From Planctomycetota bacterium (GTDB lineage: Bacteria > Planctomycetota > B15-G4), in assembly GCA_029259725.1 (NCBI GenBank), contig JAJDER010000013.1:8623-72622 (forward strand): a DNA stretch of 64,000 nt. The letters run 5' to 3'. A program made the position numbers and the translations under genes. This document shows, piece by piece, positions 5,225-36,337 of this stretch; the first letter of the stretch is position 1; every line of letters begins with the position of its first letter. The notes beneath the pieces were generated by a model, which had not been told where the DNA came from, made no database searches, and saw only the letters and a list, made by a program, of their open reading frames with translations.

Positions 5225-8200
5225 TCAGCGCGCGAGTCCGTCGTAGACGAACGCGGCCCAGGCGTAGGGGTGGGCGGTGGTGCGCTCGGGGTCGCCGCGA
5301 CGTGACCGGTCTCCGAGTCCGCCGCCGCGCTCGTCCACCTCGGCCAGGGCTTCGTCGCCGCGTAGCAGGGACAGGCGCGCGCGACGCAGGGCCTCGGCCG
5401 GGGGGCGGCCTTCGGTCAGCAGGCCGCGATAGAACACCGCCATGAGCTCGGCGGTGGCCAGGTCGTCCACGCGCCAGAGGCTGGCGATCACCGCGCGCGA
5501 GCCGGCGTGCAGGAAGGCGCGGGCCAACGACTGCACGCCCTCGGCGCGCTGCAACTCGCCGCGCGCGGTCTCGCAGGCCGAGAGCACGGTCAGGTCGGCG
5601 TCCAGGTCCAGTTCCAGCAGGTCGGCCAGGGGGACGAAGCCGTCGTCGTCGCCCTCGGGCGACAGCACGAGCCCGGAGCGACGCGCGTCCTCGGCGTCCA
5701 GCAGGGCGTGGGTCGCGAAGTGCAGGATGCGGTGGCGGCGCAGGTCCCCGGACAGGGCGGAGGGGCTGGCGTCGGCGCCGATGCGCAGGTCGAGGCGTTC
5801 GTCCACGAACGCGCCGCTGCGTACCTCGTCGTCCAGCGCCTCGATGCCCAGGTCGCGGGCGATGGCGCGCGCCTCGGTGCGCGTGCCGAACAGCCGAGGC
5901 AGCCGGCCCAGGTCCACGGTGGTGCGTTGGGCGGCCACGTGCGCGGGCAGCTCCACCTCGGAGATGTAGGTCGGGTCCGCCAGCACCAGCGCCGAACCGT
6001 CGCCGGCCCGTGGCGGCGTCGCGGCCAGCAGCGCGAGCACCGAAGACGACGGCCCGTACACGACGAGGTGCCGCTCCAGGACGAAGGTCAGCTGGTCGAA
6101 GCGCGTGGGCTTCGCGACGGAGGATTCGACCACCAGCGCGTCGAAGGACAGGCCGGCCAGCAGCGGGCAGGGCACGAGCACCAGCGGTCCGTCCTCGGCG
6201 AGCGGCGCGCCGTCGACCCCGAGGACCGGGCGCAGCAACAGCTCGTACAGCGCACGGCCCTGGGCGGCGACGTCCGCCACGTCGGACAGCGCGGCTCGGT
6301 CCGCCAGTCCGGCCACGAAGGCGTCGACCAGCTCGCCGATCTCCGCGCGGTCCCCCAGCGCGTGCCGCTCGATGCCGTCCGGCGAGATCACGTACGCGCC
6401 GAGACCGTGCTTGCCCTCCACGAACTCCACCAGTCGACCGCGCCTCCGGAGCACCGCGTCCACGAGCTGCTCCGGCGTGGGCGCACGGGGGACGTCCAGC
6501 ACAGCCTCGCGCGGTGCACGTTCGGCCAGCTCGGCCTGCAGCCCGGCCCGACGCGCGGCGAGGTCGTCCACCTCGTCGCGCAGCCGCGAGGCCTCGTCGC
6601 CCACCGCGTCGTCACGTACCGCGACCGCCAGCTGCTGCCGTGCGCCCTGGAGCGCGTTCTCGACATCGCGCAGATCCCGGCGCAACGGGGCGACGTCCGC
6701 CGAGCGCCCACCCGAGCGGTGCTCGGCGATGCCCGCCAGCAACGCCTGGCCCTTCCAGAGATCGGCGCGCGCGAAGCCTGCCCGGGCAGCGGCGTCGCGC
6801 GTCGCCGGATCGCGCGCCGCCGCCACGCGCCGCGCGGCCAGGTCCTGCGCGAACTCGCCGCACTCCGCCAGCGCCTTGACGGAGCGCAGCTGCGCCAGCG
6901 TCTCGGTCGGCAGGCCCAGCAGGGCTTCCGCGCGCAGGTGCTCCTCGGCGCGCACCAGCGACGATTCCGCGGTGGGCAGATCCCCGAGCTCCAGGGAGGC
7001 CTCGACGTGGACCAGCAGCGGGTAGAGCTCGGCGCGCCAGTCCCCGGTGACGCGCGCGGCCGCCATCGCTTCGGTGGCCCGAGCCTGCGCGGTCTCTGCG
7101 TCGCCAAGGCGCAGATGCAGGTCGGCCAGGTTGCTCGCCAGGCTCGCATCGTGCTCGGCGCCCACATCCTGCGCCAGCTCCTGCATCGAGGTGCCGAGAT
7201 CGAGCGCGCGAGCGAAGTCGCCGGCGTCGTACGCGAGCATGAACAGGCCTTGTCGGGCCTTGAACTCCACCTCGCCGGAACCGACGGACCGCGCCAGCTC
7301 CAGCGCGCGTTCGTAGCTCGCCCGGGCCGGCGCCGGATCGGTGTCCCGGCGCCCCGCGTTGCCCAGCTCCACGAGCAGCTCGGCGCGGAACGCCGGTTCG
7401 AAGTCCTCGGGCAGCAGGGCCAGCGCCTGCGCCAGGGCGGCCGCGCCGTCGGTGCGCTCGCCGAGCTGGATGAGCAGGCTGCCCAGGTTGCCGAGGGCCG
7501 TGGCCTCGACGCGCAGGTCTCCGATCTCGCGGGCCAGGGCGAGGCAGGCGTCGTAGCTGGCGAGCGCGTCGCCGTAGCGTCCACGCGTCACCTCGATGTT
7601 GCCGAGTTGACCGAGCGCGGCCGCCTTCAGCTCGGGTAGCGGGGCGGCGTCCAGCGCCCGCTCGTACAACCGCTCGGCTTCGAAGAAGTGTGCGCAGGAC
7701 TGCTCGAACTGCCCGGCCGCCAGCAGCGCGCTCGTGGTGGCGCCCGGCTCCTCCACCTGCTCGGCCAGCGCCAGTGCCGCCTCGTGCCCCGCGCGCGCGG
7801 CCGCGATGTCCCCGCGCGCGGCGTCGAGGCGCGCGAGCTGCGACAGGTTGGCGATCCGGTTGCGGTCGTCGCCGGCGGCGAGCATGAGCTCCTGCGCGAC
7901 GAGATACCAGGCGCGGGCATCGTCCAGGCGACCCAGCGCGCGGTAGGCGTCGCCCAGGCGTGAGGCGCCCAGCAGGCGCAGCTGTGCGTGGCCGAGCTGT
8001 TCGGACTCGGCCAGCCCCTGCTCCAGCAGCGCGATCGCCGCGTCCAGCTCGCCGTCGCGCGAGAGCACCGAGCCGAGGTAGACGTGTCCGGCCGCGAGGA
8101 TCACCGGGTGGCCCAGCTCGTCGGCCAACGGCTGGAGCCTCTCGAAGCACTGTCGTGCCGGCGCGAACAGGCGCGCGTTGAAGAAGACCTGCCCCGCGTT

Positions 8201-8386
8201 GAAGTAGCCCAGGGCGGCATTCTGGACGTCACCCTGCTCGGCGGCCGTCCGGGCCTGCTCCATCAGCGCGCGGCCCTGGGCCTCCGGGTCGTCCTGCGCC
8301 ACGGCCCCGCCGACCGCGAGGAGCACGGCGAGCGCGAGCGGCTGGAGCGGGGCGGCGACGTCGGCGAGGACTGGCCGGGGCGACAT
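5225..8386 (-). CDS. Secreted TPR-repeat / coiled-coil / CHAT-domain (caspase-like clan CD) protein
   Basis: ATG 8386 (MSPRPVLADVAAPLQPLALAVLLAVGGAVA|QDD, a signal-peptide-like N-terminus). About 600 aa of TPR-like helical repeats. C-terminal CHAT with a His/Cys dyad context (ILHFATHALLD ... LTVLSACETARG) and the typical end HPYAWAAFVYDG. Upstream of 8386, the 2535-aa ORF 5225-12832 is antisense shadow. Confidence 0.85.
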   Translation of the reverse strand: MSPRPVLADVAAPLQPLALAVLLAVGGAVAQDDPEAQGRALMEQARTAAEQGDVQNAALGYFNAGQVFFNARLFAPARQCFERLQPLADELGHPVILAAGHVYLGSVLSRDGELDAAIALLEQGLAESEQLGHAQLRLLGASRLGDAYRALGRLDDARAWYLVAQELMLAAGDDRNRIANLSQLARLDAARGDIAAARAGHEAALALAEQVEEPGATTSALLAAGQFEQSCAHFFEAERLYERALDAAPLPELKAAALGQLGNIEVTRGRYGDALASYDACLALAREIGDLRVEATALGNLGSLLIQLGERTDGAAALAQALALLPEDFEPAFRAELLVELGNAGRRDTDPAPARASYERALELARSVGSGEVEFKARQGLFMLAYDAGDFARALDLGTSMQELAQDVGAEHDASLASNLADLHLRLGDAETAQARATEAMAAARVTGDWRAELYPLLVHVEASLELGDLPTAESSLVRAEEHLRAEALLGLPTETLAQLRSVKALAECGEFAQDLAARRVAAARDPATRDAAARAGFARADLWKGQALLAGIAEHRSGGRSADVAPLRRDLRDVENALQGARQQLAVAVRDDAVGDEASRLRDEVDDLAARRAGLQAELAERAPREAVLDVPRAPTPEQLVDAVLRRRGRLVEFVEGKHGLGAYVISPDGIERHALGDRAEIGELVDAFVAGLADRAALSDVADVAAQGRALYELLLRPVLGVDGAPLAEDGPLVLVPCPLLAGLSFDALVVESSVAKPTRFDQLTFVLERHLVVYGPSSSVLALLAATPPRAGDGSALVLADPTYISEVELPAHVAAQRTTVDLGRLPRLFGTRTEARAIARDLGIEALDDEVRSGAFVDERLDLRIGADASPSALSGDLRRHRILHFATHALLDAEDARRSGLVLSPEGDDDGFVPLADLLELDLDADLTVLSACETARGELQRAEGVQSLARAFLHAGSRAVIASLWRVDDLATAELMAVFYRGLLTEGRPPAEALRRARLSLLRGDEALAEVDERGGGLGDRSRRGDPERTTAHPYAWAAFVYDGLAR

Positions 8387-8518
8387 GCAGGCTCCGTCAC
8401 GGGGACACGTCGGCAGGGAGTATGCCAGAGGGGCAGCGGACTCCGCAGTCGAGGTGAAGGCCGGCGCGCTATCATCCGGCGCCCGCGACGGCCGCGGGTC
8501 GCGAAGGCGGGAGGCGCG

Positions 8519-11107
8519 ATGGCAGATCCGGACGGCACGACGAGCGACGCGGCGACCGGACCGGCGGGTGGCGCAGCCCCGGCCGCACGCGCGATCACCC
8601 TGGCCGCCCTGCTCGGCACGGCGACCGCCGTCGGGCTCCAGGTCCTGCTCCCGCGGGTGTTCTCGGTGGTGCTCTGGTACCACCTCGGGTTCTTCGCCGT
8701 CAGCCTCGGCATGCTCGGCTTTGCGGCCGGCGGCGCGCTGGTGGAGCGGCGCACCGCGCGCGGCGGCCGCTGGAACCCGGCCGGCGTGGCGCTCTTCGCA
8801 GCCCTCAGCTGGGTCGTTGCCGTGACGGTCGTGGTGCACCTGCCCCTGGAGGCCTCGGGCCTGATCGACTCGCGCGGAGACCGCGTGCGGCTCGTGATCC
8901 TGGGTCTGGTGCTCGCCGTGCCCTTCTCGGCCCTGGGCACGCTCGTGTGCCAGGCGCTGCACGACGGTCGCGAGCAGCTTGGGCGCACCTACGGGCTCAC
9001 CTTCCTCGGCGGCGCCCTCGGCGCTGCCGGCGCGGTGGGGGTCATGCAGCTCGCGGGCCTGCGTCGCACGGCCGCCGTGCTCGCGGCGCTGCCCCTGCTC
9101 GTCGCGCTGCTCGCCGGCCGCCGCTGGCAACGCGTCCTGGCCGGCGTGCTCGTCCTGGCTGCCGGCGGACTGTTCGTCGAGGACGACCTCTGGCTCTCGC
9201 TCGAGAGTCGCAAGCACTTCCCGCGCGTGCCGCCCTCGGCGGTGCTGGCCGAAGCCGACGACGCGACCAGTCACGTGCTCTTCTACGACAACCCGGACCA
9301 CCACGGGCTGTGGCCCTCGGTCGACACCGACCCGGCGACGCTGCCCGAGACCGTCGGTGTGGCCATCGACACCTGGGCGATCACCTTCCTCACCGCGTGG
9401 GATCCCCACGCGACCGGCGCCGCGGGAACCGGCGCCGCGGGAACCGACGCCGCGGGAACCGACGCCGCCGGCGACAACACGCTGGCCGCCGACACCCCGG
9501 CCGCCACGCGCACGGTCATCGCCGCGAACGGCGAGGCCTACCCGGCGTTCATCGACGAGCACCAGGCCGGGCTCGCCTTCGTCGGTGCCGCCCCCGGCTT
9601 CTCGTCGCTGATCATCGGCGCGGGCGGGGGCTGGGACGTGCTCACCGCGCTGCGCGAGGGCGCCGGCCACGTGACGGCCGTGGAGCTCAACCCGCACATC
9701 GTCGACGCGGTGAAGGGCCCGTGGGCCGAGTTCACCGGACACCTCTACAGCGACCCGCGCGTGGAGGTGCACGCCGCCGAGGGCCGCCACTTCGCGGAGC
9801 ACGACGAGCGCACCTATGACCGCGTGGTGCTCGCGGGCGTCGACACCTTCGCGTCCACCCAGGCCGGCGCCATGGCCCTGGCCGAGAACGACCTCTACAC
9901 GATCGAGGCCTTCGACACCTGGCTCGAACGACTCGCGCCCGGCGGCGTGCTGTGCCTCACGCGCTGGTGGTTCGAGCCTCCACGCCAGACGCCGCGGCTG
10001 GTCCTGACCGCGGCCGAGGGTCTGCGCCGCGCGGGCATCCGGGATCCCGGCGCGCACATCGTGGTCGGGCGCGGCGAGCAGAACTCGCTCACCTTCGTGA
10101 AGCGCAGCGAGCCCTTCACCGACGCCGAGCGCCGCGAACTGGCGGCGGCGTTCCAGCAGCGCAACGCGGCGCTCGTCTACGCGCGCGGGCTGCCGGGCCA
10201 CCCGCTGCTCTCGGCGCTGCTCGACGTGGGCGGCTACGAGGGCTGGACGCTGGAGGGCCTGGCGCCCGTGGTCGAGGGCTATCCCTATCGCATCGACCCG
10301 TGCACCGACGACCGGCCCTTCTTCTTCGAGACCGCGCGGCTCGCGACCCTGTTCCGCAGCGAGGGTGACTGGATCCACGACCGACTCGGCGGTCACGAGG
10401 TCCTCGCGGCCACGCTGGCGGTCCTGCTCGTGCTGGTCCTGCCCCTGCTGTTCGCCGGCGGACGCGCGACGCGACAGGCGACAGGCCAGGCTGCGGGCGC
10501 GCCGCCTGAATCCCGCGGCGCGCGGGCGCGGAGCTTGTTGCCGTTCCTGCTGCTCGGCTTCGCCTACATGTTCGTCGAGATCCCGTTGCTGCAGCGCCTG
10601 ACCCTGGTGCTCGGTCACCCGGTCTACGCGGTGGCGGTCGTGCTCGTCGCGCTGCTCGTGTTCTCGGGCCTCGGCTCGGTGCTCGCCGGTCGGCAGCGGA
10701 CGCCGCGACCGGCGACCGCGATGCTGCTCGCCGCGGTCACCATCCCGGCCGTGCTGCTCGGCCTGCACGCGCTGCTCGTCCCGGTGATCTCGGGCTGGCC
10801 GTTGTGGCCGCGCATCGGCGGGGTCCTGCTCCTGCTGGCCGCGCCGGCGCTGGTCATGGGCGCCTGCTTCCCGCTCGCCGTGCGGCGGCTCGGTGTCGAG
10901 CGCGTGCCGTCGGCGTTCCTGTGGAACGGGCTCGCGTCGGTGCTCGCGGGCCCGCTCGCGGTGCTCGTCGCGCTCGAAGTCGGCTTCACGGCGACCCTGC
11001 TCACCGGTGCGGGCGCATACCTGCTCGCGGCCGCGTGCCTCGTGACGGCGAAGGCGACGACCGGAAACACCGCGGGCGACCCGGTGGAAACCGGATTCCC
11101 GGCTTGA
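8519..11107 (+). CDS. Polytopic membrane protein with central spermidine-synthase-like (SpeE-fold) domain
   Basis: ATG 8519 with GGGAGG 5 nt upstream. N- and C-terminal multi-TM regions flank a Rossmann-like core (LIIGAGGGWDVLTALREGAGHVTAVELNPHIV .. YDRVVLAGVD). This architecture is usually annotated as fused MFS/spermidine synthase. Confidence 0.7.
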   Translation: MADPDGTTSDAATGPAGGAAPAARAITLAALLGTATAVGLQVLLPRVFSVVLWYHLGFFAVSLGMLGFAAGGALVERRTARGGRWNPAGVALFAALSWVVAVTVVVHLPLEASGLIDSRGDRVRLVILGLVLAVPFSALGTLVCQALHDGREQLGRTYGLTFLGGALGAAGAVGVMQLAGLRRTAAVLAALPLLVALLAGRRWQRVLAGVLVLAAGGLFVEDDLWLSLESRKHFPRVPPSAVLAEADDATSHVLFYDNPDHHGLWPSVDTDPATLPETVGVAIDTWAITFLTAWDPHATGAAGTGAAGTDAAGTDAAGDNTLAADTPAATRTVIAANGEAYPAFIDEHQAGLAFVGAAPGFSSLIIGAGGGWDVLTALREGAGHVTAVELNPHIVDAVKGPWAEFTGHLYSDPRVEVHAAEGRHFAEHDERTYDRVVLAGVDTFASTQAGAMALAENDLYTIEAFDTWLERLAPGGVLCLTRWWFEPPRQTPRLVLTAAEGLRRAGIRDPGAHIVVGRGEQNSLTFVKRSEPFTDAERRELAAAFQQRNAALVYARGLPGHPLLSALLDVGGYEGWTLEGLAPVVEGYPYRIDPCTDDRPFFFETARLATLFRSEGDWIHDRLGGHEVLAATLAVLLVLVLPLLFAGGRATRQATGQAAGAPPESRGARARSLLPFLLLGFAYMFVEIPLLQRLTLVLGHPVYAVAVVLVALLVFSGLGSVLAGRQRTPRPATAMLLAAVTIPAVLLGLHALLVPVISGWPLWPRIGGVLLLLAAPALVMGACFPLAVRRLGVERVPSAFLWNGLASVLAGPLAVLVALEVGFTATLLTGAGAYLLAAACLVTAKATTGNTAGDPVETGFPA
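9413..9472 (+). repeat. In-frame 15-bp tandem repeat (4 units) encoding (T-G/D-A-A-G)n linker inside the SpeE-like gene
   Basis: accggcgccgcggga x2, accgacgccgcggga, accgacgccgccggc. Codon-phased (9413 is a codon start). The protein reads TGAAGTGAAGTDAAGTDAAG. Confidence 0.9.
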
Positions 11108-11338
11108 TGTCGCGCTGACGCGGCGGCGCGCGGCGCATATGCATCGGCCCGCCCTGACCGCCGCGCGCGGAGTGGGGTGTTTGCGGAAACGCGCACGACC
11201 TTCTGGGATTCGGAACCCGTGATAGGTTGGCGGTCCCCCCGAAGGAGCCGCGTCTCTCTCCCAAGACCCGGCGGCTCCGCACGCTGGATGTCCGGCGTGC
11301 TTCGTTCCACCCAGCGATCCCGAAACCCGGAGACGGCC

Positions 11339-12907: not shown

Positions 12908-12929
12908 GCGGGGGACGGCAGACCCGAGT

Positions 12930-12965: not shown

Positions 12966-13006
12966 GTCGTGTCCGGAGCCGCTCCGAGAGCACCACTCCG
13001 AACGCG

Positions 13007-26653: not shown

Positions 26654-26694
26654 GGGGTTCTCCTCCGCGCATCCGGGTTCGAGCACACGCCAGC

Positions 26695-28527: not shown

Positions 28528-28569
28528 GCGTTGTCCTCCCGGGACCCGAATGAGGACCAACGGTATCAC

Positions 28570-29187
28570 TCATCCCGGCGCCTGCCTCCGGCGGAGGACC
28601 TTGCCCAGTTCGACCAGGGCCTGGGCGTGCATCATGCGCGCGGCGTCCGAACTCGGGCGGCCGGTCTGCTCGGCGATGGACGCCCAGGACTCGCCCACGT
28701 AGAGCCGCATCACGATCAGGTCGCGATGTTCGGCCGTGAGTTCGTCGAGTGCCGCCTCCAGGAGTGCCGCCTGTTCGTCCGCGGCGGCTCGCTCGACGGG
28801 GAGAGTCACGTTCGCGGTCGGATCCACGCCGATGGTCCCGCTGGCTCCGGGCGCGACCAGGCGCTGCTCGCGCCGGGCGTCCCGCTTGGCTGCCCCGTGC
28901 CGATCCGCGGCCGCGTAGACCTGTCGCTCGGCCAGCGTCGCGAGCCACTTGATCAGGCTGGCTTCATCCCGGACTTCGAATCGCTCGAAGGACCGGACCG
29001 CCTCCAGGAAGGTCTCCTGCAGGATGTCGGCACTGTCCACCCGGCGTCGGAGTGCGGCACCGAGCCGCGCACGCACGACCTTGCGCACGCGTTCGTAGTA
29101 GCGGGCGCAGAGCGCGTCGAGGGCGGCCGCGTCCCCGGCCTGGGCGCGTTGCACGAGATCGAGCGAGCGGGTGACGTCTGCGTCCAT
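28570..29187 (-). CDS. ECF-type sigma-70 family factor (STK-linked type)
   Basis: 205 aa. Region 2 (DSADILQETFLEAVRSFERF..SLIKWLATLAERQV), a long sigma2-sigma4 linker, and region 4 HTH (LIVMRLYVGESWASIAEQTGRPSSDAARMMHAQAL). It lies 33 nt downstream of the kinase gene on the same strand. Confidence 0.85.
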   Translation of the reverse strand: MDADVTRSLDLVQRAQAGDAAALDALCARYYERVRKVVRARLGAALRRRVDSADILQETFLEAVRSFERFEVRDEASLIKWLATLAERQVYAAADRHGAAKRDARREQRLVAPGASGTIGVDPTANVTLPVERAAADEQAALLEAALDELTAEHRDLIVMRLYVGESWASIAEQTGRPSSDAARMMHAQALVELGKVLRRRQAPG

Positions 29188-29220
29188 GGCTGAGAGAGCG
29201 GCGTGGCCGCTGGGAACCCA

Positions 29221-31215
29221 TCATACGTCGTCCTCCGCTCCGTCCTCCGCTCCGTCCAACGCGGGCTCTGCCGGGGCGGGCTGGACCGCGAACCAGCACA
29301 CGAAGCGATGCAGGTCCTCGGGCCACGCATCGTGCTCGGGAGCGGAGGCTTCCGTGGCCAGGGCCTCGGCCAGGTTCCGGCGCTGCGTGTCCGTGACGGC
29401 GACGGCGCCACCGCGATTCGATGGGGCGGCTTCGAGCAGTTCGCGAGCCCGGTCGATCCCGACACCGGGCGATCCGGCTGGAAGGAGATACGCCTCGCGC
29501 GCCAGGGCGTCCAGCCACTCCGCCAGCTCCGCTGCGGGTCTGGCGGTGGCGAAGACCCAGAGCCCTTCGTAGCCGACCTCGGCCACGGGCTCGCCCACCG
29601 TCGCGCCCCCGACATGCACCGCACCGGCTGCGGGTTCCACGAGCAGGTCCCAGTCCGACGCCTCCGGCGCTTCGGTCGGCAGCAGCAGGACCGGCTTGCG
29701 GGGCAGGATCCAGTCGGCGCTGCGCTGTCGACCGAGGACCGAGAGGACGTAGACGTGGACCGGGGCCTCGGCCTGGATGCGGACACCCAGGATGTCGCCG
29801 GCGCGAGCGATGTCGTCCAGCTCGGTATCGAGAGGCACGAGTCGATGGCCGTCGTACCGCGCAGCCGTGAGCAGGACCGCGGCACCGGGCGTCCGGGTGT
29901 TCATCCACCAGGCCACCACCACGAGCAGCCCTGCGGCCAGTGCAGCGAAGACGTGACGGCGTCGCCGCGCCAGTGCCACGAGCCGCGTGAGCGGACCCGC
30001 ACCGCGCTCCAGGAGCGCGACCGGGACTTCTGTCCCGCCGAGGTATCGATCCAGATCGTCACGCAGGTCGCGTGCGCTGGCATAGCGCCGGGTGGTGTCG
30101 GCGTGCATGGCCTTGAGGCAGATGGCGTCGAGGGCGGCCGGCACCGTCGGATCGACTTCGCTCGGCGTGCGCAGGTCTCCGGCCACGATCCGATCCATGA
30201 CGACGCTGACGCTGTCCCCGGAGTAGGCCCGATCCAGTGTCAGCAACTCGTAGAGGATCACGCCGAGCTGGTACACATCGGTTCTCGGGTCGGCCCCGAC
30301 AGTCTTGCGGCGCACCTGTTCCGGCGACAGGTACGGGGGTGTGCCGACCAGGCCCCGGGTCACGGCGCCCACGCCGCTGCCGAAGGTGGCGGCCAGACCG
30401 AAGTCGAGGACGACGGGCGTGCCGTCTCCGCGCACCAGCACGTTGGACGGCTTCAGGTCGCGGTGCAGGATGCCGGCACCGTGCGTGGCCTCGAGTGTTG
30501 CCGCCAGACCGCGCGCGAAGCCGGAAACGGTGCACCACCACGAGCCGCTGTCGACCGGGTGCTCGTGACCCTTCGGCAACGGCTTGTCCACGGCGGCCAG
30601 CAGGGCCCTTCCCGACGTGGGTGCTCGCCGCCGCCCGTCGGCCGAGGTCTTGAGCGACGCGCGCACGCGCTCGAGCACTTCGTCCAATCCTCGGCCCTCG
30701 ATCAGGTCCATGACCAGGAAGGGGCCGAACGCGCTCCAGCCGGCCTCGTGGATGGCCACCACGCCGGGGTGCTGAAGCGATGCGAGCGCACGACACTCCT
30801 GTTGGAAACGCTCCTGCGGGGAGAACGCGCTGCCCTCGGCTTGTTCCGCCGTCACGATCTTCAGGGCGACGAGCCGGTCGAGCTGCAGGTCGTGCGCTTC
30901 GAAGACGCGGCCCATGCCGCCGGCACCGATCTCGCGGACGAGGCGATACCGATCCACGAGGATCGCACCGGGACCGGCCGCGGGCCGGAGTGGGTGCGGG
31001 GTCGGCGCGGTCACGACGGAGGACTCGATCAGGGCGCGCGCACCCTGCGCGTCGGCGACCAGCTGCCGGAAGACGACGGCCTCGTCGAGACCGAGCCTCG
31101 CGGCCCAGACGTCCATGTCCCCGGGATCACCACCCTCGAGCGCTTTCAGGTAGAGCGCAGCGAGCCGGTCGGGCGAGCCGGCACCCGCGGGGTCGGGGAG
31201 AGTCGGATTCGTCAT
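29221..31215 (-). CDS. Hanks-type Ser/Thr protein kinase with one TM helix and an extracytoplasmic DUF4384-like domain
   Basis: ATG 31215 (GGAGGCG upstream). GAGGMGRV, VALK, HRDLKPSNVL, DFGLA, GTPPYLSPE. TM segment HVFAALAAGLLVVVAWW. The external domain has the pattern GDILGVRIQAEAPVHVYVLSV (DUF4384-like, from memory). Confidence 0.9.
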   Translation of the reverse strand: MTNPTLPDPAGAGSPDRLAALYLKALEGGDPGDMDVWAARLGLDEAVVFRQLVADAQGARALIESSVVTAPTPHPLRPAAGPGAILVDRYRLVREIGAGGMGRVFEAHDLQLDRLVALKIVTAEQAEGSAFSPQERFQQECRALASLQHPGVVAIHEAGWSAFGPFLVMDLIEGRGLDEVLERVRASLKTSADGRRRAPTSGRALLAAVDKPLPKGHEHPVDSGSWWCTVSGFARGLAATLEATHGAGILHRDLKPSNVLVRGDGTPVVLDFGLAATFGSGVGAVTRGLVGTPPYLSPEQVRRKTVGADPRTDVYQLGVILYELLTLDRAYSGDSVSVVMDRIVAGDLRTPSEVDPTVPAALDAICLKAMHADTTRRYASARDLRDDLDRYLGGTEVPVALLERGAGPLTRLVALARRRRHVFAALAAGLLVVVAWWMNTRTPGAAVLLTAARYDGHRLVPLDTELDDIARAGDILGVRIQAEAPVHVYVLSVLGRQRSADWILPRKPVLLLPTEAPEASDWDLLVEPAAGAVHVGGATVGEPVAEVGYEGLWVFATARPAAELAEWLDALAREAYLLPAGSPGVGIDRARELLEAAPSNRGGAVAVTDTQRRNLAEALATEASAPEHDAWPEDLHRFVCWFAVQPAPAEPALDGAEDGAEDDV

Positions 31216-31414
31216 CGCGTCTGCGCCTCCAGGCGCCGGGTTGCGGCTTCCCATCCTATGGGCACCGCCAGCCGTGAGCGAAGGTAGCCGGAGCGGTCGG
31301 GCCTGGATCCCGGGTTTTCTGGAGGTCGTCCCTTCGGTCGAGCGGCCCGCCTCCCATGTCGGGGGCGAGCGGAGCCACGAGGGCTTCCTCGGCCACGAAC
31401 CGGAGGAAACGAAG

Positions 31415-33160
31415 ATGTTCACCAGGACCCTGATCAACGCCGGCCTCGTTCTCGCCAGCCTGGCCGCCCCCGCGGCCCCCCAGCTGCTCTCCGACGAACA
31501 GGTCTGGGACTTCGAGAACAAGAAGCACCTCTCCCGGATGCCGACCACCCAGACGGAGGTCGACTCCCGCATCCGCGTCACCTGGATCGACAAGGACTGC
31601 AAGCAACTCGGGAGAGGCATCGCCTTCGAGGGCAAGCAGGAAGGGGGCTGGGGTTCGCTGCTGCTGAACCACTTCTCCGAAGGACTCGGGACGTTCCGTT
31701 CCCGCTGTTACCTGGTCGGAGACGACGACTCGCTGCTCGCCCTCGAGACCCGCGGCGCGATTCGCATCGCCACGGTCGACCACGACTACTACCTGTTCGC
31801 GGTGAAGACGCCCGGCGGAATCGGAGCGTTCCTCGCGGCCGACAGCGAGGCCGTCTCTCCGCTCTTTGATCTGGGTCTCCCCGGTGCGAGCGCGTGTGAC
31901 CTGGAGCTCGTCCTGTTCGAGACCGAAGTGGCGGCACGGGCGCGGGCGGTCGGACCCTGCAACGGAGACGCCGAGCCGGTCCTGGGAGCCTGGGTTGACA
32001 TCGGGACCTACCCGCTGGACGCCGGCGCCGACGGGAGCGCCGACGGGGACGACGACGACCTCGATGAGGAGACCGAGGAGGAACTCCACCAGCTCTCGAA
32101 GCTGCTCCAGGGTCAGTTCGCCTACCTGGTGGGGGCCTCCGGCCTGAGCAAGAAGGAGACGCGGGTGGTCTTCAACCAGCTGTGGACCGAAGCGGATTTG
32201 CTGAGCGGGTTGTTCCAGCATGACTTCTTCACCGAGGTCACCGCGATCCAGGCCGACCTCCGTGACCTGCAGACGCAGGCCGCTGACGCGAACGACGCTC
32301 CGGGGCAGCAGGTCGCCCTGGCGGACGGCGCCGCCCAGATCGGCGACCTCCGCGATCGCACCGAGGCCCTGCTGCTGGCTCTCGATGGGTCCACGGTTTC
32401 GGGTGCGTCCGGCGTCGGCGGGGCGGATGTGGCGCCCGGGCCGCTCGCCGAGACGGTCCAGAAGAAGCTCGCGATGAAGAACCTGAAGGTCGTGTCCAAG
32501 AACCTCGTTGCCGCCCAGAAGGGCGCGGACAAGGGCAGCGTGAAGTTCATCAAGAAGTACGTGTGCCTGCTGCAAAAAGCGCTCGAGCGGCTCACGGCGA
32601 CCGGCTACAACTTTCGCGGCTTCAAGGCCACGCGCATCGCGCACCTCCCGCTGCCAGCCCTGGTCAAGCCCGACGTGACCCCGTCCGGTGGCGGCGGCGG
32701 TGGCGGCACGGGGAACGCCACGCTCCAGGCCGACTTCGTCTACGGCACGGGCTTCACCGAGAGCCTGAGCGCGTCGGGCGCCGACGTGACGGCCGAGTAC
32801 CAGGTGTCCTCGGGCTTCACCTTCATCTCGGCCACGGGCCCGAACGGCGTGCTCAGCATGCAACTGGGGTACGACCCGTTGACCGAGGGTGCCCAGGTGT
32901 TCAACAGCAAGGTGTTCGCGGCGCCCTTCACGGGCAGCCTGCACAGCTTCAACTGGCAACCCCTGGGCGCCCCGGGTGGCTTCCTGCCGCCGCCCTTCAG
33001 CATGGGTGGATCCACGGCGGCCCTCTCGGTCGAGGTGGAGATCACGCAGAACGCCGGCGGTGAATTCGACCTCACCTTCTCCGGGACGCTGTTCGGCATC
33101 AACGGCTCCACGGCCCAGATCGACGGCTCGGGCTCGATGGCCTGGACCGTCACGAACTGA
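31415..33160 (+). CDS. Secreted 581-aa orphan protein (N-domain, acidic linker, helical Lys-rich region, poly-Gly, C-terminal beta domain)
   Basis: ATG 31415 (GGAGGA 8 nt upstream). Signal peptide MFTRTLINAGLVLASLAAPAA|PQ. DGDDDDLDEETEEE, KKLAMKNLKVVSKNLVAAQKGADKGSVKFIKKY, SGGGGGGGTG. No family recognised. Divergent from the kinase gene. Confidence 0.6.
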   Translation: MFTRTLINAGLVLASLAAPAAPQLLSDEQVWDFENKKHLSRMPTTQTEVDSRIRVTWIDKDCKQLGRGIAFEGKQEGGWGSLLLNHFSEGLGTFRSRCYLVGDDDSLLALETRGAIRIATVDHDYYLFAVKTPGGIGAFLAADSEAVSPLFDLGLPGASACDLELVLFETEVAARARAVGPCNGDAEPVLGAWVDIGTYPLDAGADGSADGDDDDLDEETEEELHQLSKLLQGQFAYLVGASGLSKKETRVVFNQLWTEADLLSGLFQHDFFTEVTAIQADLRDLQTQAADANDAPGQQVALADGAAQIGDLRDRTEALLLALDGSTVSGASGVGGADVAPGPLAETVQKKLAMKNLKVVSKNLVAAQKGADKGSVKFIKKYVCLLQKALERLTATGYNFRGFKATRIAHLPLPALVKPDVTPSGGGGGGGTGNATLQADFVYGTGFTESLSASGADVTAEYQVSSGFTFISATGPNGVLSMQLGYDPLTEGAQVFNSKVFAAPFTGSLHSFNWQPLGAPGGFLPPPFSMGGSTAALSVEVEITQNAGGEFDLTFSGTLFGINGSTAQIDGSGSMAWTVTN

Positions 33161-33170
33161 GTCTCCGCGC

Positions 33171-33221
33171 CGACGACGATGCCAGGCCCGGTCGGGTTGC
33201 AACCCGACCGGGCCGTCGTCG
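33171..33221. terminator. Long GC-rich hairpin between convergent genes (likely bidirectional terminator)
   Basis: Palindrome ggcccggtcgggtt-gc-aacccgaccgggcc (33185-33214), extended by cgacgac (33171-33177) pairing with gtcgtcg (33215-33221). It lies 11 nt after the stop of 31415-33160. Confidence 0.5.
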
Positions 33222-33262
33222 TACCGGGCCACTCTCGGCGCGCATGACTTCCGCCACGAACG

Positions 33263-36200
33263 CTAGGACCACGCACCACTCAACACGAAGGCAGCCCAGG
33301 TCGCCGGCCGACCCTCGCCGTGGCGGCGCCGCTGGAGCTCGAGCATCTCGAGTTGCGCTCGACGCAGGGCTTCGGCGCGACCGAGCCCGTCGATCCAGAG
33401 GGCTCGATAGAAGCGCTCCATCAACGCGGCGGTCGAGCCGTCATCCACGGCCCACAGCGACGCGATCAGGGTCCGGGCACCAGCGAGGTGGAAGGCCCGC
33501 CGCAGTCCGATCAGCCCCTCGCCGGCGCGTGGCTCGCCGAGACCCGTTCCGCACGCGCTGAGCACGACGAGTTCGGTCGCGGACAGATCGAGCCAGGCCA
33601 CCTCTGCGGCCGTGAGGTGGGCGTCGGGATCAGCGTTGGCACCGGCGCACACGAGCCCCGCGGCCAGGCCGGGGAAACGGTGGCGCAGCAGGTCAGCGGC
33701 GTTCGCGTCGGCGGCGCTCACGTCGGTCTCGATCGGAGGCTCGAAGAACGCGTGCGTCGCGAGGTGCAACACCTTCGCGCGCGACATCTCGTCCCGGACG
33801 CGGGCCTTCGTGGCGCCAGCCCCCGTCAACAGCACGCGTGGGGCCTGCTCTCCGAACTTCTCGGCATGAAGGTCGAGCACCACCCGGGATTCGTAGGCCG
33901 TGGCTGGCAGGGGAGCCCAACGCTTGCCTCCCCCTCCACCGGGGGTACGGGGCGTCGCCTCTCCGGTGCCATCGAAGCGCACGTCCCCCACGCTGACCAG
34001 CGACGAAGAACCGGAGGAGGGCAGGGGCTCCTTGGTAGCGGGGTCGACGAGCACGACGTCATGGGACTCCAGCAGGTAGCGCTCATCCTCGAGCAGGATG
34101 GCGCCCCAGGGCACCATGCCCACGATTCCGTCGGGAGAGATCTGGAGGCGCCCCACCCCGTCCAGGTGTGATGCGAGAGGTTCCCACAGACTTGCGCGCA
34201 GTCGATTGTTGGCCGGCCCTGTCCGACCCGTTGCTCGATCGACGGACAGGATCTCGGCGAGGAAGTCCCGGACGTCGGCTTCCAGTACGGAGAGGTCCCC
34301 GAGATCGATCCGGCGCACGCCATCGCGACCGCCCCGGCGGATCCAGGCGCTGACGCGCGGTGAAGCCCAGTGGCCGGGTCCGGCTGCCGCCCGGTCGGTG
34401 TCGTAGGGTCGCCAGATCAGGAGATCCGCGAGCGCGGTCCCTTCCGGAAGCGTGGGCGTCGGCAGCCGATTCCGAGGTGTCGGCAAGCCGGTCGCCCCCA
34501 GTCTCCGCTCCAGCTCGTCGCGTTCTCGCGTCAGCGCTTCGAGCTGCTCCGGTGACGCCGACATCCGAGTCGCCATGACCGAGAGGCCCGCCTGGACCTC
34601 GCGCAGCCGGTCGAGGGATGGCGTCAGGTCTTCGTCCTGCTGGTCATGGAGCGCCCGACGGCCCGCGAGCTGGTAGCGGGCGAGCCTCCCCTTCCACAGC
34701 AGGATCGCCCGGTGCACCTCGTCCTCCCGGTCGAGCTCCGACGACAGTCCGATCAACAGGTCGAGATGGGACCGGTAGGCCCCGATGAAGTCGAGCGCCT
34801 CGGGCTCGGAGAACGCCGCGAGGGTCAACTCGAGGTGCCTGTCGAGCGGCTCGATCGTTGACCACGTGAGGTCCCAGGCCTGCTCGGATTGCCCGAGCTC
34901 GATGAACCGTTGGGCCAGGTTGCCGACACGCTCGAGCGTGAGCGGATGATCGGCACCGACAGTCGCCCGCGACATGTCGACGGAGCGCCGGAGCAGAGCC
35001 ACGGCGGCTTCCGGATCACCGCTCTCGGCGAGAGTGACGGCCAGGTTGTTGAGGGCCAGTGCGATGTCGGGATGGTCTCCCGCATGGGCGGCTTCGACGA
35101 TCGACAGGGCGCGCCTGAGGTCATCGACCGCCTCGGCGTGACGCCCTGCCTGCCCCAGGGCCCGCGCACGCCGGCCGAGGTCCTTGGCGAGCACGGGGTG
35201 GTCGGGTCCGGCTTGCAGGACGCGTGCAGAGACGACACCGTCGAGAAGCTCCAGGGAAGCCGTGGTCTCGCCCAGCCGACTCAACACTCCCGCCAGGGCG
35301 GCCTGGGTGTCCAGCAACGCGGGAGTCCCCGGAGCGAGAGCGGTCGACTGGATCTCCAGGGCCCGCTGGTGATAGGTGCGCGCCACCGTGTCCTGCCCCA
35401 CGCCCTCGTGGAACTGTCCGAGGTGGAACAGGGCGAGCCCCACGCGGGGATGGCGACCGCCCAGCTCGTCCTGGATGACGGCCAGGGCCTGTTCTCGATG
35501 ATGCCGCGCTTCCGGAATCCGGCCGACCTCTTCCAGAGCGGCGGCGAGGCTCGTTGCCGCCCGGGCGGTGTCGAGGTGGTCGGCGCCGTGGACGTCCACG
35601 AACATCGTCCATGAGCGTTCCAACAGACGCAGCGCACCCTTCGCGTCCCCGCCCGCTCGCCGCGCTCGTGCGAGGTTGGCCAGCGAGGCCGCCGTGAGCG
35701 CGCTCGCCCCGGTGAGGTCCTCTCTCAGCTCGAGAGCCGCCTGCAGTCTCTCCCGTGCCCGTGCGAGGTCGCCGGTGTCCGTGAGCAGGATGCCGAGGTT
35801 CGTGAGGGTGGCGGCGAGCTTCATGGGATCGCGAGGCTCCGCGGACTCACGGATCGCGAGCGCCCGTTCGTACATGCTTCGCGCTTCGGCCCAGGCACCG
35901 CCCTGGTGCAGCATGGTGGCGAGGTCGTTGGCCCGGCCGGCGATGATGCCTGCGTCCGGATCCGTTCCCGCTTCGGCCAGTTCGAGGGACAGACGGCCGA
36001 GGACCGCGGCCGAGATCAGGTCTCCCCGCTGCAGCGCCATCCGCGCGAAGTCGTTGGCGCGCAGGGAGCGATCACGCTGTTGAGCGTTGCTCGCGTCGAT
36101 GCGCGTGGCGATCACGACCATCGTCTCCCGAGCGACGTCCGAGCGTCCTGCCTGAGCGGCTCGACCATGGAGCTGGCCGAGCGCGTCGAGCGCCTCGTCG

Positions 36201-36337
36201 CCGGGGATCTCGGAGAGGAGCTCGAGCGCGCGCCGCAACTCGTCCGGTGGCGGATCGTCCGGCGCGCGCGTACCCACGGTCGCCAACGCGACCATCAGCA
36301 CGGGCGTCAGGAGCCGGTGAGCGCTCATCCAGTGCAT
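33263..36337 (-). CDS. Secreted TPR-repeat / CHAT-domain (caspase-like) protein, second copy of this architecture
   Basis: ATG 36337 or 36328 (MSAHRLLTPVLMVALATVGTRA, signal-like). About 12 TPR_12-like repeats (NLGILLTDTGDLARARERLQAAL, LNNLAVTLAESGDPEAAVALLRRSV ..). CHAT dyad context VLHLATHAFFE ... LVVLSACGTGLG, ending RPATWAAFVLSGAW. Confidence 0.85.
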   Translation of the reverse strand: MHWMSAHRLLTPVLMVALATVGTRAPDDPPPDELRRALELLSEIPGDEALDALGQLHGRAAQAGRSDVARETMVVIATRIDASNAQQRDRSLRANDFARMALQRGDLISAAVLGRLSLELAEAGTDPDAGIIAGRANDLATMLHQGGAWAEARSMYERALAIRESAEPRDPMKLAATLTNLGILLTDTGDLARARERLQAALELREDLTGASALTAASLANLARARRAGGDAKGALRLLERSWTMFVDVHGADHLDTARAATSLAAALEEVGRIPEARHHREQALAVIQDELGGRHPRVGLALFHLGQFHEGVGQDTVARTYHQRALEIQSTALAPGTPALLDTQAALAGVLSRLGETTASLELLDGVVSARVLQAGPDHPVLAKDLGRRARALGQAGRHAEAVDDLRRALSIVEAAHAGDHPDIALALNNLAVTLAESGDPEAAVALLRRSVDMSRATVGADHPLTLERVGNLAQRFIELGQSEQAWDLTWSTIEPLDRHLELTLAAFSEPEALDFIGAYRSHLDLLIGLSSELDREDEVHRAILLWKGRLARYQLAGRRALHDQQDEDLTPSLDRLREVQAGLSVMATRMSASPEQLEALTRERDELERRLGATGLPTPRNRLPTPTLPEGTALADLLIWRPYDTDRAAAGPGHWASPRVSAWIRRGGRDGVRRIDLGDLSVLEADVRDFLAEILSVDRATGRTGPANNRLRASLWEPLASHLDGVGRLQISPDGIVGMVPWGAILLEDERYLLESHDVVLVDPATKEPLPSSGSSSLVSVGDVRFDGTGEATPRTPGGGGGKRWAPLPATAYESRVVLDLHAEKFGEQAPRVLLTGAGATKARVRDEMSRAKVLHLATHAFFEPPIETDVSAADANAADLLRHRFPGLAAGLVCAGANADPDAHLTAAEVAWLDLSATELVVLSACGTGLGEPRAGEGLIGLRRAFHLAGARTLIASLWAVDDGSTAALMERFYRALWIDGLGRAEALRRAQLEMLELQRRRHGEGRPATWAAFVLSGAWS

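Follow-up and report, generated by a model that had tools for sequence, protein, structure and literature searches.

Two genes in a 64,000-nt stretch of the genome of an uncultured Planctomycetota bacterium (GTDB lineage B15-G4; contig JAJDER010000013.1, positions 8,623 to 72,622; hereafter the window) encode caspase-like TPR-CHAT proteins with intact His/Cys dyads and signal-like N-termini, here named CHAT-A and CHAT-B. They fall into a very large class of exported TPR-CHAT proteins that evolves fast and has a patchy distribution. As relatives repeatedly lie beside membrane kinase/sigma-factor switches, signalling across the cell envelope is the most likely role. It is proposed, with slightly less than even confidence, that these proteins act as periplasmic sensor-proteases controlling an ECF sigma factor. 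We know of no exported TPR-CHAT protein for which cleavage of any substrate has been demonstrated.

Gene architecture, catalytic dyad and fold

CHAT-A (5225..8386, minus strand, 1053 aa) and CHAT-B (33263..36337, minus strand, 1024 aa) are real genes with the positions and lengths originally predicted. Codon statistics place the start of CHAT-A at 8386; a longer open frame, 5225-12832, was rejected as a high-GC artefact. GC3 is 0.92 for CHAT-A and 0.83 for CHAT-B. CHAT-A consists of a signal-like N-terminus (residues 1-31, nt 8294-8386), a TPR solenoid (residues ~34-490, nt 6917-8287), a long-helix spacer (residues 494-646, nt 6449-6907), and a CHAT domain (residues 709-1050, nt 5237-6262) with catalytic His893 (nt 5708-5710) and Cys938 (nt 5573-5575). 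CHAT-B has a hydrophobic N-terminus (residues 1-25, nt 36263-36337), a TPR_12/TPR_10 solenoid (residues ~104-505), and a CHAT domain (residues 711-1022, nt 33272-34207) with catalytic His862 (nt 33752-33754) and Cys929 (nt 33551-33553). The CHAT domains score 206 and 205 bits in Pfam (cut-off 24), respectively, and several TPR families match upstream of both. The predicted motif contexts, HFATHA...LSACET in CHAT-A and HLATHA...LSACGT in CHAT-B, were seen, and in a 38-sequence alignment the catalytic Cys is invariant and the His nearly so. The profile and alignment checks proposed with the original prediction thus bear out the dyad.

AlphaFold models of CHAT-A and CHAT-B (pLDDT 86 and 84, pTM 0.82) share a layout of a detached N-terminal helix, a TPR solenoid, four long helices, and an alpha/beta CHAT domain. 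The four helices correspond to the coiled-coil-like spacer that had been described, and the TPR solenoid is ~450 aa long. The two proteins are only 24% identical, indicating old paralogues and not a recent duplication. Their nearest relatives reach at best 35-41% identity and neither has a conserved orthologue.

Foldseek matches both models to separase, Csx29, and DdvA with E values of 1e-12 to 1e-14. Separase, the top structural match, likewise places helical repeats ahead of a CHAT/caspase-like domain; however, it is a eukaryotic clan-CD cell-cycle protease that is not exported and shares 12-14% sequence identity with CHAT-A and CHAT-B. Csx29 of the type III-E CRISPR Craspase (e.g. PDB 8EEY) shares both the TPR-CHAT architecture and the fold (E 1e-13), and is a protease gated by a partner that cuts a sigma-factor-linked regulator. 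It is cytoplasmic, Cas7-11-bound, and RNA-activated, whereas CHAT-A and CHAT-B carry predicted export signals and the window holds no cas genes. As anticipated, neither cas nor NTPase partners were found among the window genes scanned with Pfam.

A close parallel is offered by DdvA of Myxococcus xanthus, the anti-sigma factor of the ECF sigma factor DdvS (PDB 8ROT/8RW5; PMC11506125), which combines a TPR solenoid with a CHAT domain bearing a His/Cys dyad and matches both models with E 3e-13 to 1e-12. Its TPR-CHAT portion lies outside the cytoplasmic membrane, as predicted for CHAT-A and CHAT-B, and all are members of a class linked with ECF sigma signalling. DdvA is, however, a single polypeptide in which a zinc-binding anti-sigma domain in the cytoplasm and a TM helix precede the TPR-CHAT region. 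CHAT-A and CHAT-B instead start with a signal-like segment of just 25-31 aa, and no cognate sigma factor adjoins them. DdvA itself lacks the three-helix motif. Autoproteolysis of DdvA is a hypothesis of its authors (PMC11506125). The periplasmic location of its TPR-CHAT region (PMC11506125) means that the earlier statement that bacterial CHAT roles are mostly cytoplasmic needs updating. In the favoured reading taken as a whole, which falls a little short of an even chance, CHAT-A and CHAT-B would be catalytically competent proteases of the separase/Csx29/DdvA type.

Evidence for export

By hydropathy heuristics and comparison with relatives, the N-termini of both proteins are signal-like, although the hydropathy-based heuristic has little discriminating power against the Ala-rich background of this genome. 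In a 10-residue N-terminal window, 39% of called genes reach a hydropathy of 2.0 and 27% reach 2.5, which is the score of CHAT-B, so a hydrophobic N-terminus is weak evidence taken alone. This background would suit an improbable reading in which such stretches arise by chance in an Ala/Leu/Val-rich proteome, and the proteins are cytoplasmic scaffolds or pseudo-enzymes, either not exported or not proteases. The best Ala-X-Ala-like site of CHAT-B is also followed by Pro. Of the eight CHAT proteins that the genome encodes, four begin with a hydrophobic stretch and a subsequent small-residue site (e.g. AVA↓Q); the other four have no such N-terminus, which favours this non-export reading.

Comparison with relatives argues the other way. 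The hydrophobic N-terminus is kept in relatives at 35-40% identity, including B-like proteins at 38-40%, and the signal is unambiguous in relatives from low-GC phyla. Among 68 complete relatives from other phyla, 82% have hydrophobic N-termini compared to 44% of neighbouring genes (odds ratio 4.1), many being textbook signal peptides or lipoboxes. The AlphaFold models place the N-terminus off the fold, at low confidence, and conservation of the dyad and surrounding motifs argues against pseudo-enzymes. From these sequence comparisons we infer that CHAT-A and CHAT-B are probably secreted, with a Sec-type signal that would take both proteases across the cytoplasmic membrane.

Association with ECF sigma factors and membrane kinases

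The window contains a transmembrane Ser/Thr kinase gene (29221..31215, minus strand, 664 aa), encoding a cytoplasmic kinase domain, a single TM helix (residues 421-437, nt 29905-29955), and a 224-aa extracytoplasmic C-terminal domain. An ECF sigma factor gene (28570..29187, minus strand) lies 33 nt downstream and no recognisable anti-sigma gene is found beside the pair (28570-31215). The same strand continues, with gaps of 42 and 8 nt, into genes for a tail-bearing glucose/sorbosone-dehydrogenase-like protein (26695-28527) and a 182-aa exported protein (26138-26686), which probably share an operon with the kinase and sigma genes. The nearby sigma factor is paired with a Ser/Thr kinase, whereas DdvS is paired with an anti-sigma. 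STK-regulated ECF43-type systems (EcfP-PknT of Vibrio parahaemolyticus and EcfK-PknS of Xanthomonas citri; PMC8103513, PMC8999054) likewise have an adjacent kinase and ECF gene. Shared features extend to a single-pass kinase, no recognisable anti-sigma alongside, and alteration of the region 2.2 DAED motif, here to the Ser-containing DSAD. STK-linked ECFs without DAED are activated by phosphorylation (PMC8103513); DSAD in the window sigma is what would be expected of a phosphorylation-dependent ECF. No protease partner is described for ECF43-type systems in PMC8103513 and PMC8999054, whereas pairs of the window type have a recurrent exported TPR-CHAT neighbour, an addition to the described kinase/ECF systems.

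As predicted, tail-bearing and STK/ECF genes do occur near the CHAT genes of the window. CHAT-B is 2 kb from the kinase/ECF pair, separated by one opposite-strand gene (31415..33160, plus strand), which is divergent from the kinase gene and convergent with CHAT-B. It encodes a secreted protein of unknown family with no homologue in the loci of relatives. CHAT-A has no ECF or kinase gene within 10 kb and is regarded as an orphan copy, an unlinked paralogue.

Across 37 CHAT loci of the order, 16 have an ECF sigma or Ser/Thr kinase gene within 1.5 kb, and densities near versus far from CHAT genes are 9.3 vs 2.4 per 100 kb for ECFs and 7.4 vs 1.9 for STKs. A permutation within the window's own genome found no ECF/kinase enrichment near CHAT genes. 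Full-length orthologues of the window kinase, extracytoplasmic domain included, occur in three other genera (G014, G007, G008), each adjoining an exported TPR-CHAT gene in a different arrangement. The window ECF is the sister of the G014 sigma, itself beside an exported TPR-CHAT. These neighbours are A-like, whereas CHAT-B is of the B subtype, which counts against pairing of CHAT-B with the kinase. Searching from the kinase, 4/14 family members have a CHAT gene within ~2 kb, compared to a chance rate of ~1.5% estimated, not simulated, from 8 CHAT genes in 4.8 Mb. Nine of the 14 have none within 9 kb (one more is on a contig too short to tell), indicating that the protease is not an obligatory partner. 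A-like CHAT genes and the kinase subfamily are both present in nine relatives, both absent in five, and discordant in one. Genome size (5.1 vs 3.3 Mb) is a confounder of the joint loss, and related genomes are not independent.

In other phyla, an ECF gene lies within 1.5 kb at 22/80 exported TPR-CHAT loci (10.6 vs 0.9 per 100 kb), typically with a gene for a 225-330-aa single-TM protein in between. Eight such intervening genes were tested; an HxxxCxxC motif is present in 5/8 and the zf-HC2 cut-off is reached in 3/8. By sequence they look like single-pass anti-sigmas, giving a split form of DdvA. Two acidobacterial loci have the order ECF, TM-kinase, small gene, TPR-CHAT. Linkage to CHAT genes is also conserved near ECF54 sigmas, alongside subtilase and carboxypeptidase genes, and has been interpreted as proteolytic control (PMC8999054); ECF54 is a different ECF group, likened here for its gene linkage. 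The earlier idea of periplasmic signalling proteases feeding anti-sigma-less ECFs therefore gains comparative support at family level, but is loose for the window genes themselves, with CHAT-B 2 kb off and CHAT-A unlinked.

The proposed mechanism has a protein ligand or partner binding to the TPR solenoid and the CHAT domain cutting a regulator that spans the envelope and governs an ECF sigma factor. Among Acidobacteriota, Bacteroidota and others this regulator would be the zinc-finger single-pass anti-sigma encoded next door, equivalent to a two-gene version of DdvA. For the planctomycete order of the window it would be the single-pass Ser/Thr kinase, whose partner sigma, lacking DAED, probably needs phosphorylation. 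CHAT-B is a candidate partner of the pair at 28570-31215, while CHAT-A may act in trans or upon another target.

Adjacency alone cannot separate a sensor from a sigma-controlled output. That the TPR-CHATs belong to the regulon of neighbouring ECF pairs, as effector proteases secreted upon sigma activation, is considered unlikely. Neighbouring genes are usually included in ECF regulons, ECF, kinase, and CHAT genes are co-directional in several relatives with gaps of 300-460 nt (L109, L115), and the DdvS regulon includes peptidase genes (PMC11506125). Proximity is nonetheless kept across divergent, convergent, and co-directional layouts, suiting a protein-protein partnership better than co-transcription, and in DdvA the TPR-CHAT is a physical part of the sensor. 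No shared promoter motif was found, in a search of low power.

A stand-alone role in conflict or defence, without a dedicated sigma link, is somewhat more plausible than a regulon output, at roughly one chance in four by our estimate. Here the proteins would sense a foreign protein (phage, predator, or competitor) in the periplasm and cut host or foreign envelope proteins. Patchy distribution, low nearest-relative identity, and lineage bursts (15, 24, and 29 copies in G012, G026, and G027) resemble conflict genes, and DdvA, the one studied periplasmic TPR-CHAT, controls an anti-phage island (PMC11506125). Most exported-type CHAT genes of the family also have small convergent genes of variable sequence at their 3' end, which could encode cognate partners or inhibitors. 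At CHAT-A these are two paralogous genes (3900..5211, plus strand; 219 and 215 aa) whose products match no family and lack a signal peptide; 13 nt separate the end of the second gene from the stop codon of CHAT-A, which lies on the opposite strand. However, PADLOC models match neither the CHAT parts of CHAT-A and CHAT-B nor the small partner genes, the Pfam scan of window genes found no defence genes nearby, and enrichment of ECF, anti-sigma, and kinase genes beside the family suggests that a large fraction of its members work in transcriptional signalling. The defence and signalling readings are compatible, as a foreign protein could serve as the signal and a sigma regulon as the output.

Relationship to the C-terminal tail module

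It had also been suggested that exported CHATs process the tail-bearing secreted enzymes by removing or attaching the 75-aa C-terminal module they share, by analogy with PorU, the gingipain-like C-terminal signal peptidase of the T9SS. PorU is a clan-CD cysteine peptidase that works outside the cytoplasm, but belongs to peptidase family C25, not CHAT, and is conserved together with its CTD cargo. This idea is favoured by the clan-CD fold, by the probable export of both proteins, by the presence of several tail-bearing genes in the window, and by a positive association of tail and CHAT presence across 121 genomes of the phylum (odds ratio 6.7). However, the tail is carried by ~130 proteins with genes scattered across the genome (expectation 0.5 per 20 kb anywhere), so tails near CHAT genes are expected by chance. 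Permutation in the same genome found no tail enrichment near CHAT genes (P 0.28-0.46). Of the neighbours that were to be checked for co-occurrence, ECF/STK genes are enriched at the 37 loci of the order while the tail is not (1.9 vs 1.7 per 100 kb near versus far, P 0.59), and it is absent from all 80 cross-phylum CHAT loci.

Distribution likewise separates the two. In G020 (95% complete) 46 tails occur without any CHAT; G002 combines 73 tails with a sole CHAT that is short and signal-less; and G005, G009, and G013 have 86-133 tails without an A-like CHAT. Conversely, tail/CHAT counts are 0/5 in G018, 0/4 in G031, and 1/7 in G025, and tails are missing from 38 of the 49 CHAT-bearing genomes sampled across the phylum. 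A housekeeping sortase for 130 substrates would be expected as one conserved orthologue per genome, and CHAT-A and CHAT-B have none above 41% identity. The tail module itself matches no T9SS CTD model, nor any other model. With neither co-localisation nor co-distribution, the latter a ground on which the original prediction said it would fall, the idea is close to refuted; that either protein is the sorting peptidase of tail-bearing proteins is not supported and is considered very improbable. Within the order, tail and CHAT counts are uncorrelated (rho 0.23, P 0.15), and CHAT number instead tracks genome size (rho 0.57).

Gene structure, predicted fold and probable export of CHAT-A and CHAT-B

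By profile match, catalytic dyad and predicted fold, CHAT-A (5225-8386, reverse strand, 1053 aa) and CHAT-B (33263-36337, reverse strand, 1024 aa) are ordinary members of the CHAT family (PF12770, clan CD), and are predicted to be peptidases. The window has a G+C content of 71% and comes from a 4.79 Mb assembly that is 84% complete. The nearest CTP synthases with a name attached, at 76-80% identity, belong to uncultured Planctomycetota. As high G+C yields many spurious open frames, genes were called with a codon model trained on the window's own genome (G000) and then annotated with Pfam. Coordinates, codon model and GC3 (0.92 for CHAT-A, 0.83 for CHAT-B) bear out both open reading frames as real genes, and a 2535-aa frame at CHAT-A was rejected, its extension beyond the ATG at 8386 being spurious. 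CHAT-A is monocistronic; the gene on one side of it, for a membrane protein, is divergent, and the two small paralogous genes on the other side are convergent. Scanning the surroundings of CHAT-A and CHAT-B for consensus promoters and terminators was uninformative.

PF12770 matches the C-terminal part of CHAT-A at 206.1 bits and of CHAT-B at 204.9 bits (cut-off 24), with nearly the whole model covered, and many Pfam TPR matches lie N-terminal to it. The motifs quoted in the original prediction as an intact His/Cys context are present, and the dyad (H893/C938 in CHAT-A, H862/C929 in CHAT-B) is kept in an alignment of 38 sequences, comprising the two proteins and 36 database relatives, where the Cys never varies and the His is kept in at least 90%. 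AlphaFold models (pLDDT 86.4 for CHAT-A and 84.4 for CHAT-B, pTM 0.82) consist of a detached low-confidence N-terminal helix, a TPR solenoid, four long helices and an alpha/beta CHAT domain. Foldseek searches of the PDB place separase, Csx29 and DdvA at the top for both models (E 3e-14 to 1e-12). This kinship is seen by fold alone, with only TPR proteins matched when the PDB was searched by sequence. At 24% identity the two proteins are old paralogues, and a recent duplication was rejected on that ground.

Both proteins are likely exported, judging by N-terminus heuristics and conservation. The N-termini are MSPRPVLADVAAPLQPLALAVLLAVGGAVA/QDD in CHAT-A and MHWMSAHRLLTPVLMVALATVG/TRAPDD in CHAT-B. 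G000 contains eight CHAT matches, of which four have a signal-like N-terminus (CHAT-A, CHAT-B and the copies on contigs C172 and C28) and four do not. The starts of the C172 and C28 copies are clearly signal-like (…WLAAPAVARA/DPG and …LLLALPPARA/QDA). A hydropathy signal score calibrated on the tail-bearing proteins of G000 discriminates poorly (76% vs 39% at a score of 2.0) because the proteome is rich in Ala, Leu and Val, hence the argument for export leans on conservation in relatives. A hydrophobic N-terminus is kept in relatives of the CHAT-B subtype at 38-40% identity, and among the first 70 CHAT-A relatives from the database the majority have a signal-like start. A scan of one genome per species, with a four-sequence CHAT-domain alignment as query, gave 68 complete relatives, and 82% of these have a hydrophobic N-terminus vs 44% of neighbouring genes (odds ratio 4.1; P 4e-7, stricter threshold). 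Many of these N-termini are textbook signal peptides or lipoboxes from low-GC phyla. Of the relatives sampled in several phyla, most are of this stand-alone, putatively exported form.

Distribution of CHAT genes and the C-terminal tail

The original prediction speculated that exported CHAT proteins process or attach secreted proteins with a shared C-terminal tail, by analogy with PorU. The 75-aa tail module (…PFKGGxLxPxP…Q.w..D…SNAL…P-stop) has no matching model in the Pfam and NCBIfam libraries, so no known sorting system can be assigned to it. With an HMM made from five of the window's copies, G000 has 129-139 tails, or ~1 per 37 kb, which makes several tails in any 64-kb window unremarkable. 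Within 10 kb of the four exported-type CHAT genes of G000 there are three tails vs 1.8 expected (P 0.28), and across 37 CHAT loci of the window's order tail density is 1.9 near vs 1.7 far per 100 kb. Over 41 genomes of the order, the number of tails does not correlate with that of CHAT genes (rho 0.23, P 0.15), and the CHAT number instead tracks genome size (rho 0.57).

Individual genomes of the order depart from the proposed pairing in both directions. G020 (95% complete) carries 46 tails but no CHAT, G002 (89% complete) carries 73 tails with a 494-aa signal-less protein as its sole CHAT, and G005, G009 and G013 have 86-133 tails and no CHAT of the CHAT-A subtype. Conversely, G018 has five CHAT genes and G031 four with no tails, and G025 has seven with one tail. 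In a phylum sample of 121 genomes the tail occurs in 14, nearly confined to the window's order, where relatives carry it in up to at least 141 proteins per genome, and CHAT occurs in 49. The presence of the two is positively associated across these genomes (odds ratio 6.7). This association was rejected as support for tail processing, as it comes from the order itself and from large genomes whose 1-8 tail hits are marginal and which hold at least 18 CHAT copies. The tail is absent from all 80 CHAT loci of other phyla.

Conservation of the CHAT genes points the same way. No conserved orthologue of CHAT-A or CHAT-B was found in 15 genomes of the family, where the best matches are patchy and share 35-41% identity, and the CHAT family shows paralogue bursts, such as 15 CHAT genes in G012. 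A housekeeping sortase with 130 substrates would not be expected to behave in this way. PorU has a Peptidase_C25 catalytic domain, whereas CHAT-A and CHAT-B match only CHAT and TPR families in Pfam. A sorting peptidase of the T9SS PorU type would also be expected to show co-distribution and one-to-one conservation with its sorting domain, and neither is seen between the two proteins and the tail. With no correlation of counts, no neighbourhood enrichment, counter-examples both ways and no conserved orthologue, the comparative sequence evidence refutes the tail-sortase reading as far as genomics allows. This removes a tempting but wrong lead for the tail of ~130 secreted proteins, and the machinery that handles it is to be sought elsewhere.

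Association with ECF sigma factors and membrane kinases

Few caspase relatives are commoner in bacteria than TPR-CHAT proteins. To our knowledge, the only bacterial contexts studied are the CRISPR Craspase and DdvA, and we know of no signal or substrate for the latter. DdvA is a single-pass anti-sigma factor whose periplasmic part of ~900 residues is a TPR-CHAT with a His/Cys dyad (PMC11506125). Its authors propose that clipping of its own linker starts regulated intramembrane proteolysis and frees the ECF sigma factor DdvS (PMC11506125). A periplasmic TPR-CHAT tied to an ECF sigma factor is therefore already known. Conserved CHAT genes near ECF54 sigma factors have been reviewed and interpreted as proteolytic control (PMC8999054), and phosphorylation-dependent ECFs are also known (PMC8103513). 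The main text of the ECF classification paper does not mention CHAT.

CHAT-A and CHAT-B are neither DdvA-like anti-sigma factors, nor Csx29, nor PorU analogues. They share with DdvA the TPR-CHAT architecture and fold, and heuristics on their signal-like N-termini suggest an extracytoplasmic location. However, DdvA has an N-terminal cytoplasmic zinc-binding anti-sigma domain (HxxxCxxC), whereas CHAT-A and CHAT-B have 25-31 residues before the TPRs, with no zf-HC2 domain and no Cys motif. Both also lack the adjacent cognate ECF sigma gene that would mark a DdvA-like system. Csx29 of the type III-E Craspase is genetically associated with Cas7-11/gRAMP and Csx30/Csx31/RpoE, whereas no cas genes occur among the Pfam-scanned genes of the window, as originally predicted. 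PADLOC matched the CHAT parts of both proteins and the small partner genes to no defence system, returning only a TPR hit and generic kinase hits.

In other phyla, CHAT genes repeatedly lie close to sigma genes. An ECF sigma gene is found within 1.5 kb of the CHAT gene in 22 of 80 loci sampled from Acidobacteriota, Bacteroidota, Cyanobacteria, Myxococcota and others, none of the 22 being cyanobacterial, and ECF density is 10.6 near vs 0.9 far per 100 kb (P 8e-10). An ECF sigma factor, a zinc-finger single-pass anti-sigma-like protein and an exported TPR-CHAT recur as a module in several orders and orientations (loci L012, L014, L016, L018, L021, L024, L040, L049, L050, L059, L062 and L079, from Acidobacteriota, Bacteroidota and others). 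In 16 mapped loci of this triad type, the sigma gene is usually adjoined by a protein of 225-330 aa with one TM helix. Eight such proteins were scanned with Pfam; HxxxCxxC is found in five, three reach the zf-HC2 cut-off, and some have a weak Ig-like match C-terminal to the TM helix. From these domain matches, the triad looks like DdvA split into an anti-sigma factor and a separate exported protease. Two acidobacterial loci have the gene order ECF, TM-kinase, small gene, TPR-CHAT.

In the window's own order, kinase as well as sigma genes are enriched near CHAT genes. Forty CHAT loci were fetched from relatives and the CHAT gene was called in 37, of which 16 have an ECF or Ser/Thr kinase gene within 1.5 kb. 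ECFs reach 9.3 per 100 kb near the CHAT gene vs 2.4 far from it (P 0.003), and kinases 7.4 vs 1.9 (P 0.008); since related genomes are not independent, these P values make the case look stronger than it is. The genome-wide densities in G000 are ~1.0 and ~0.8 per 100 kb, respectively.

One Hanks-type Ser/Thr kinase of the window (29221-31215, reverse strand) has a cytoplasmic kinase domain, one TM helix (residues 421-437) and a 224-aa extracytoplasmic domain, and the gene for the ECF sigma factor (28570-29187, reverse strand) lies 33 nt downstream. The pair (28570-31215) is flanked by a dehydrogenase-like protein and a secreted protein without a family, with no anti-sigma factor beside it, and at least eight such kinase/ECF pairs occur in G000. 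Region 2.2 of the sigma factor reads DSAD vs the canonical DAED, having lost the Glu and gained a Ser. Its kinase-linked clade has D/E-S-x-D, and ECFs beside the cytoplasmic CHAT type keep DAED. DSAD fits phosphorylation-dependent ECFs, although two Asp remain, and the window sigma factor may be one of these. On the reverse strand, 26138-31215 encodes the kinase, the ECF, a tail-bearing glucose/sorbosone-dehydrogenase-like protein and a 182-aa exported protein. The tail-bearing enzyme is probably co-transcribed with the kinase/sigma pair because these same-strand genes are separated by just 33, 42 and 8 nt. A second ECF/kinase pair lies tail-to-tail, with an ECF at 40799-41476 (forward strand; region 2.2 QPED) and a 1213-aa Ser/Thr kinase at 41490-45131 (reverse strand) that has a TM helix at ~residue 412 and a C-terminal WD40 propeller.

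In G014, G007 and G008, full-length orthologues of the kinase at 29221-31215, outer domain included, are found next to exported TPR-CHAT genes, with a different arrangement in each. The order in G008 (CHAT, small convergent gene, kinase, sigma) is that of the window. In the ECF tree the window sigma factor is sister to that of G014, and both fall in a supported clade with those of G007 and G008. Of 14 members of the kinase subfamily in the family, four have a CHAT gene within ~2 kb, nine have none within 9 kb and one is on a contig too short to tell. The chance rate is roughly estimated at ~1.5% from 8 CHAT genes in 4.8 Mb. CHAT genes of the CHAT-A subtype and the kinase subfamily co-occur in nine relatives, are both missing in five and are discordant in one (P 0.002), but genome size (3.3 Mb where both are missing vs 5.1 Mb) confounds the comparison, because small genomes may have lost signalling genes in general. 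Thirteen orthologous kinase/sigma operons were searched for a common -35/-10-like motif in their upstream regions, and nothing exceeded shuffled controls.

The window's own CHAT genes are linked to sigma and kinase genes only loosely. A distance of 2 kb separates CHAT-B from the start of the kinase gene, and between them is an opposite-strand gene for a secreted protein (31415-33160), of which no homologue was found in the relatives' loci. CHAT-B is of its own subtype and the CHATs beside orthologous kinases are CHAT-A-like, although a CHAT-B-like copy in G014 lies 309 nt before another TM kinase. The sigma genes nearest to CHAT-B are ~4 kb away, and each adjoins a kinase gene. No ECF or kinase gene lies within 10 kb of CHAT-A. 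The earlier suggestion that the two are signalling proteases feeding ECFs without anti-sigma factors is hence supported in part: near/far enrichment and synteny with kinase orthologues favour it, but CHAT-A lacks such neighbours and CHAT-B is loosely linked.

What is new relative to the literature searched is that a stand-alone exported TPR-CHAT repeatedly accompanies sigma/anti-sigma pairs or, in planctomycetes, pairs of a membrane kinase and a putatively phospho-dependent sigma factor. Tentatively, CHAT-A and CHAT-B may belong to a class of sensor proteases whose best-supported job is acting on envelope-spanning regulators of ECF sigma factors, with CHAT-B a candidate partner of the kinase and sigma factor and CHAT-A unlinked. 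A more specific proposal, which we consider unlikely, is that exported TPR-CHATs act in trans in the periplasm to gate single-pass Ser/Thr kinases, which in turn activate phosphorylation-dependent ECFs. The TPR solenoid of CHAT-B would bind a ligand, upon which CHAT-B would cut the 224-aa extracytoplasmic domain of the kinase at 29221-31215, or an inhibitor bound there, and the cut would start sigma phosphorylation. If true, this would be a kinase-based counterpart of DdvA and of the split sigma/anti-sigma/TPR-CHAT systems, and a third way for caspase-like proteases to control bacterial sigma factors. The recurrent coupling of exported TPR-CHATs to sigma/anti-sigma or kinase/sigma pairs allows a hypothetical protease to be placed in a signalling hypothesis that can be tested, in which protease, membrane regulator and sigma factor are distinct proteins and so easier to assay than the fused DdvA.

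Small convergent genes and other CHAT types

In the family, a small convergent gene on the opposite strand ends no more than ~90 nt from the stop codon of most exported-type TPR-CHAT genes. These small genes encode proteins of 60-290 aa with no signal peptide and no family match. Beside CHAT-A the gene is duplicated (3900-4559 and 4564-5211, forward strand), and others are found on contig C28 of G000 (2672-3232, forward strand) and at loci L088, L089, L092, L095, L099, L101, L102 and L105-L107. The genes at CHAT 3' ends form several unrelated small clusters, with no common family detectable. They could encode cognate partners, inhibitors or substrates of CHAT.

A second TPR-CHAT type is signal-less, ~950-966 aa long and always 0.7-1 kb downstream of its own ECF sigma gene on the same strand. 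It is found in G000 on contigs C15 (CHAT at ~3950-6850) and C194, and at loci L090, L091, L094 and L096. The ECFs have the canonical DAED and form a clade with 100% support, and the two genes are a separate conserved sigma/CHAT cassette in the family. In the four relatives' loci the signal-less CHAT is followed by a signal-bearing protein of ~450 aa. A short CHAT type of 464-498 aa, without TPRs or a signal peptide, occurs on contig C22 of G000 (554-1324, reverse strand) and at loci L002, L003 and L004. It has clear orthologues in G002, G004 and G011, the three smallest family genomes checked, where it is the only strong CHAT match.
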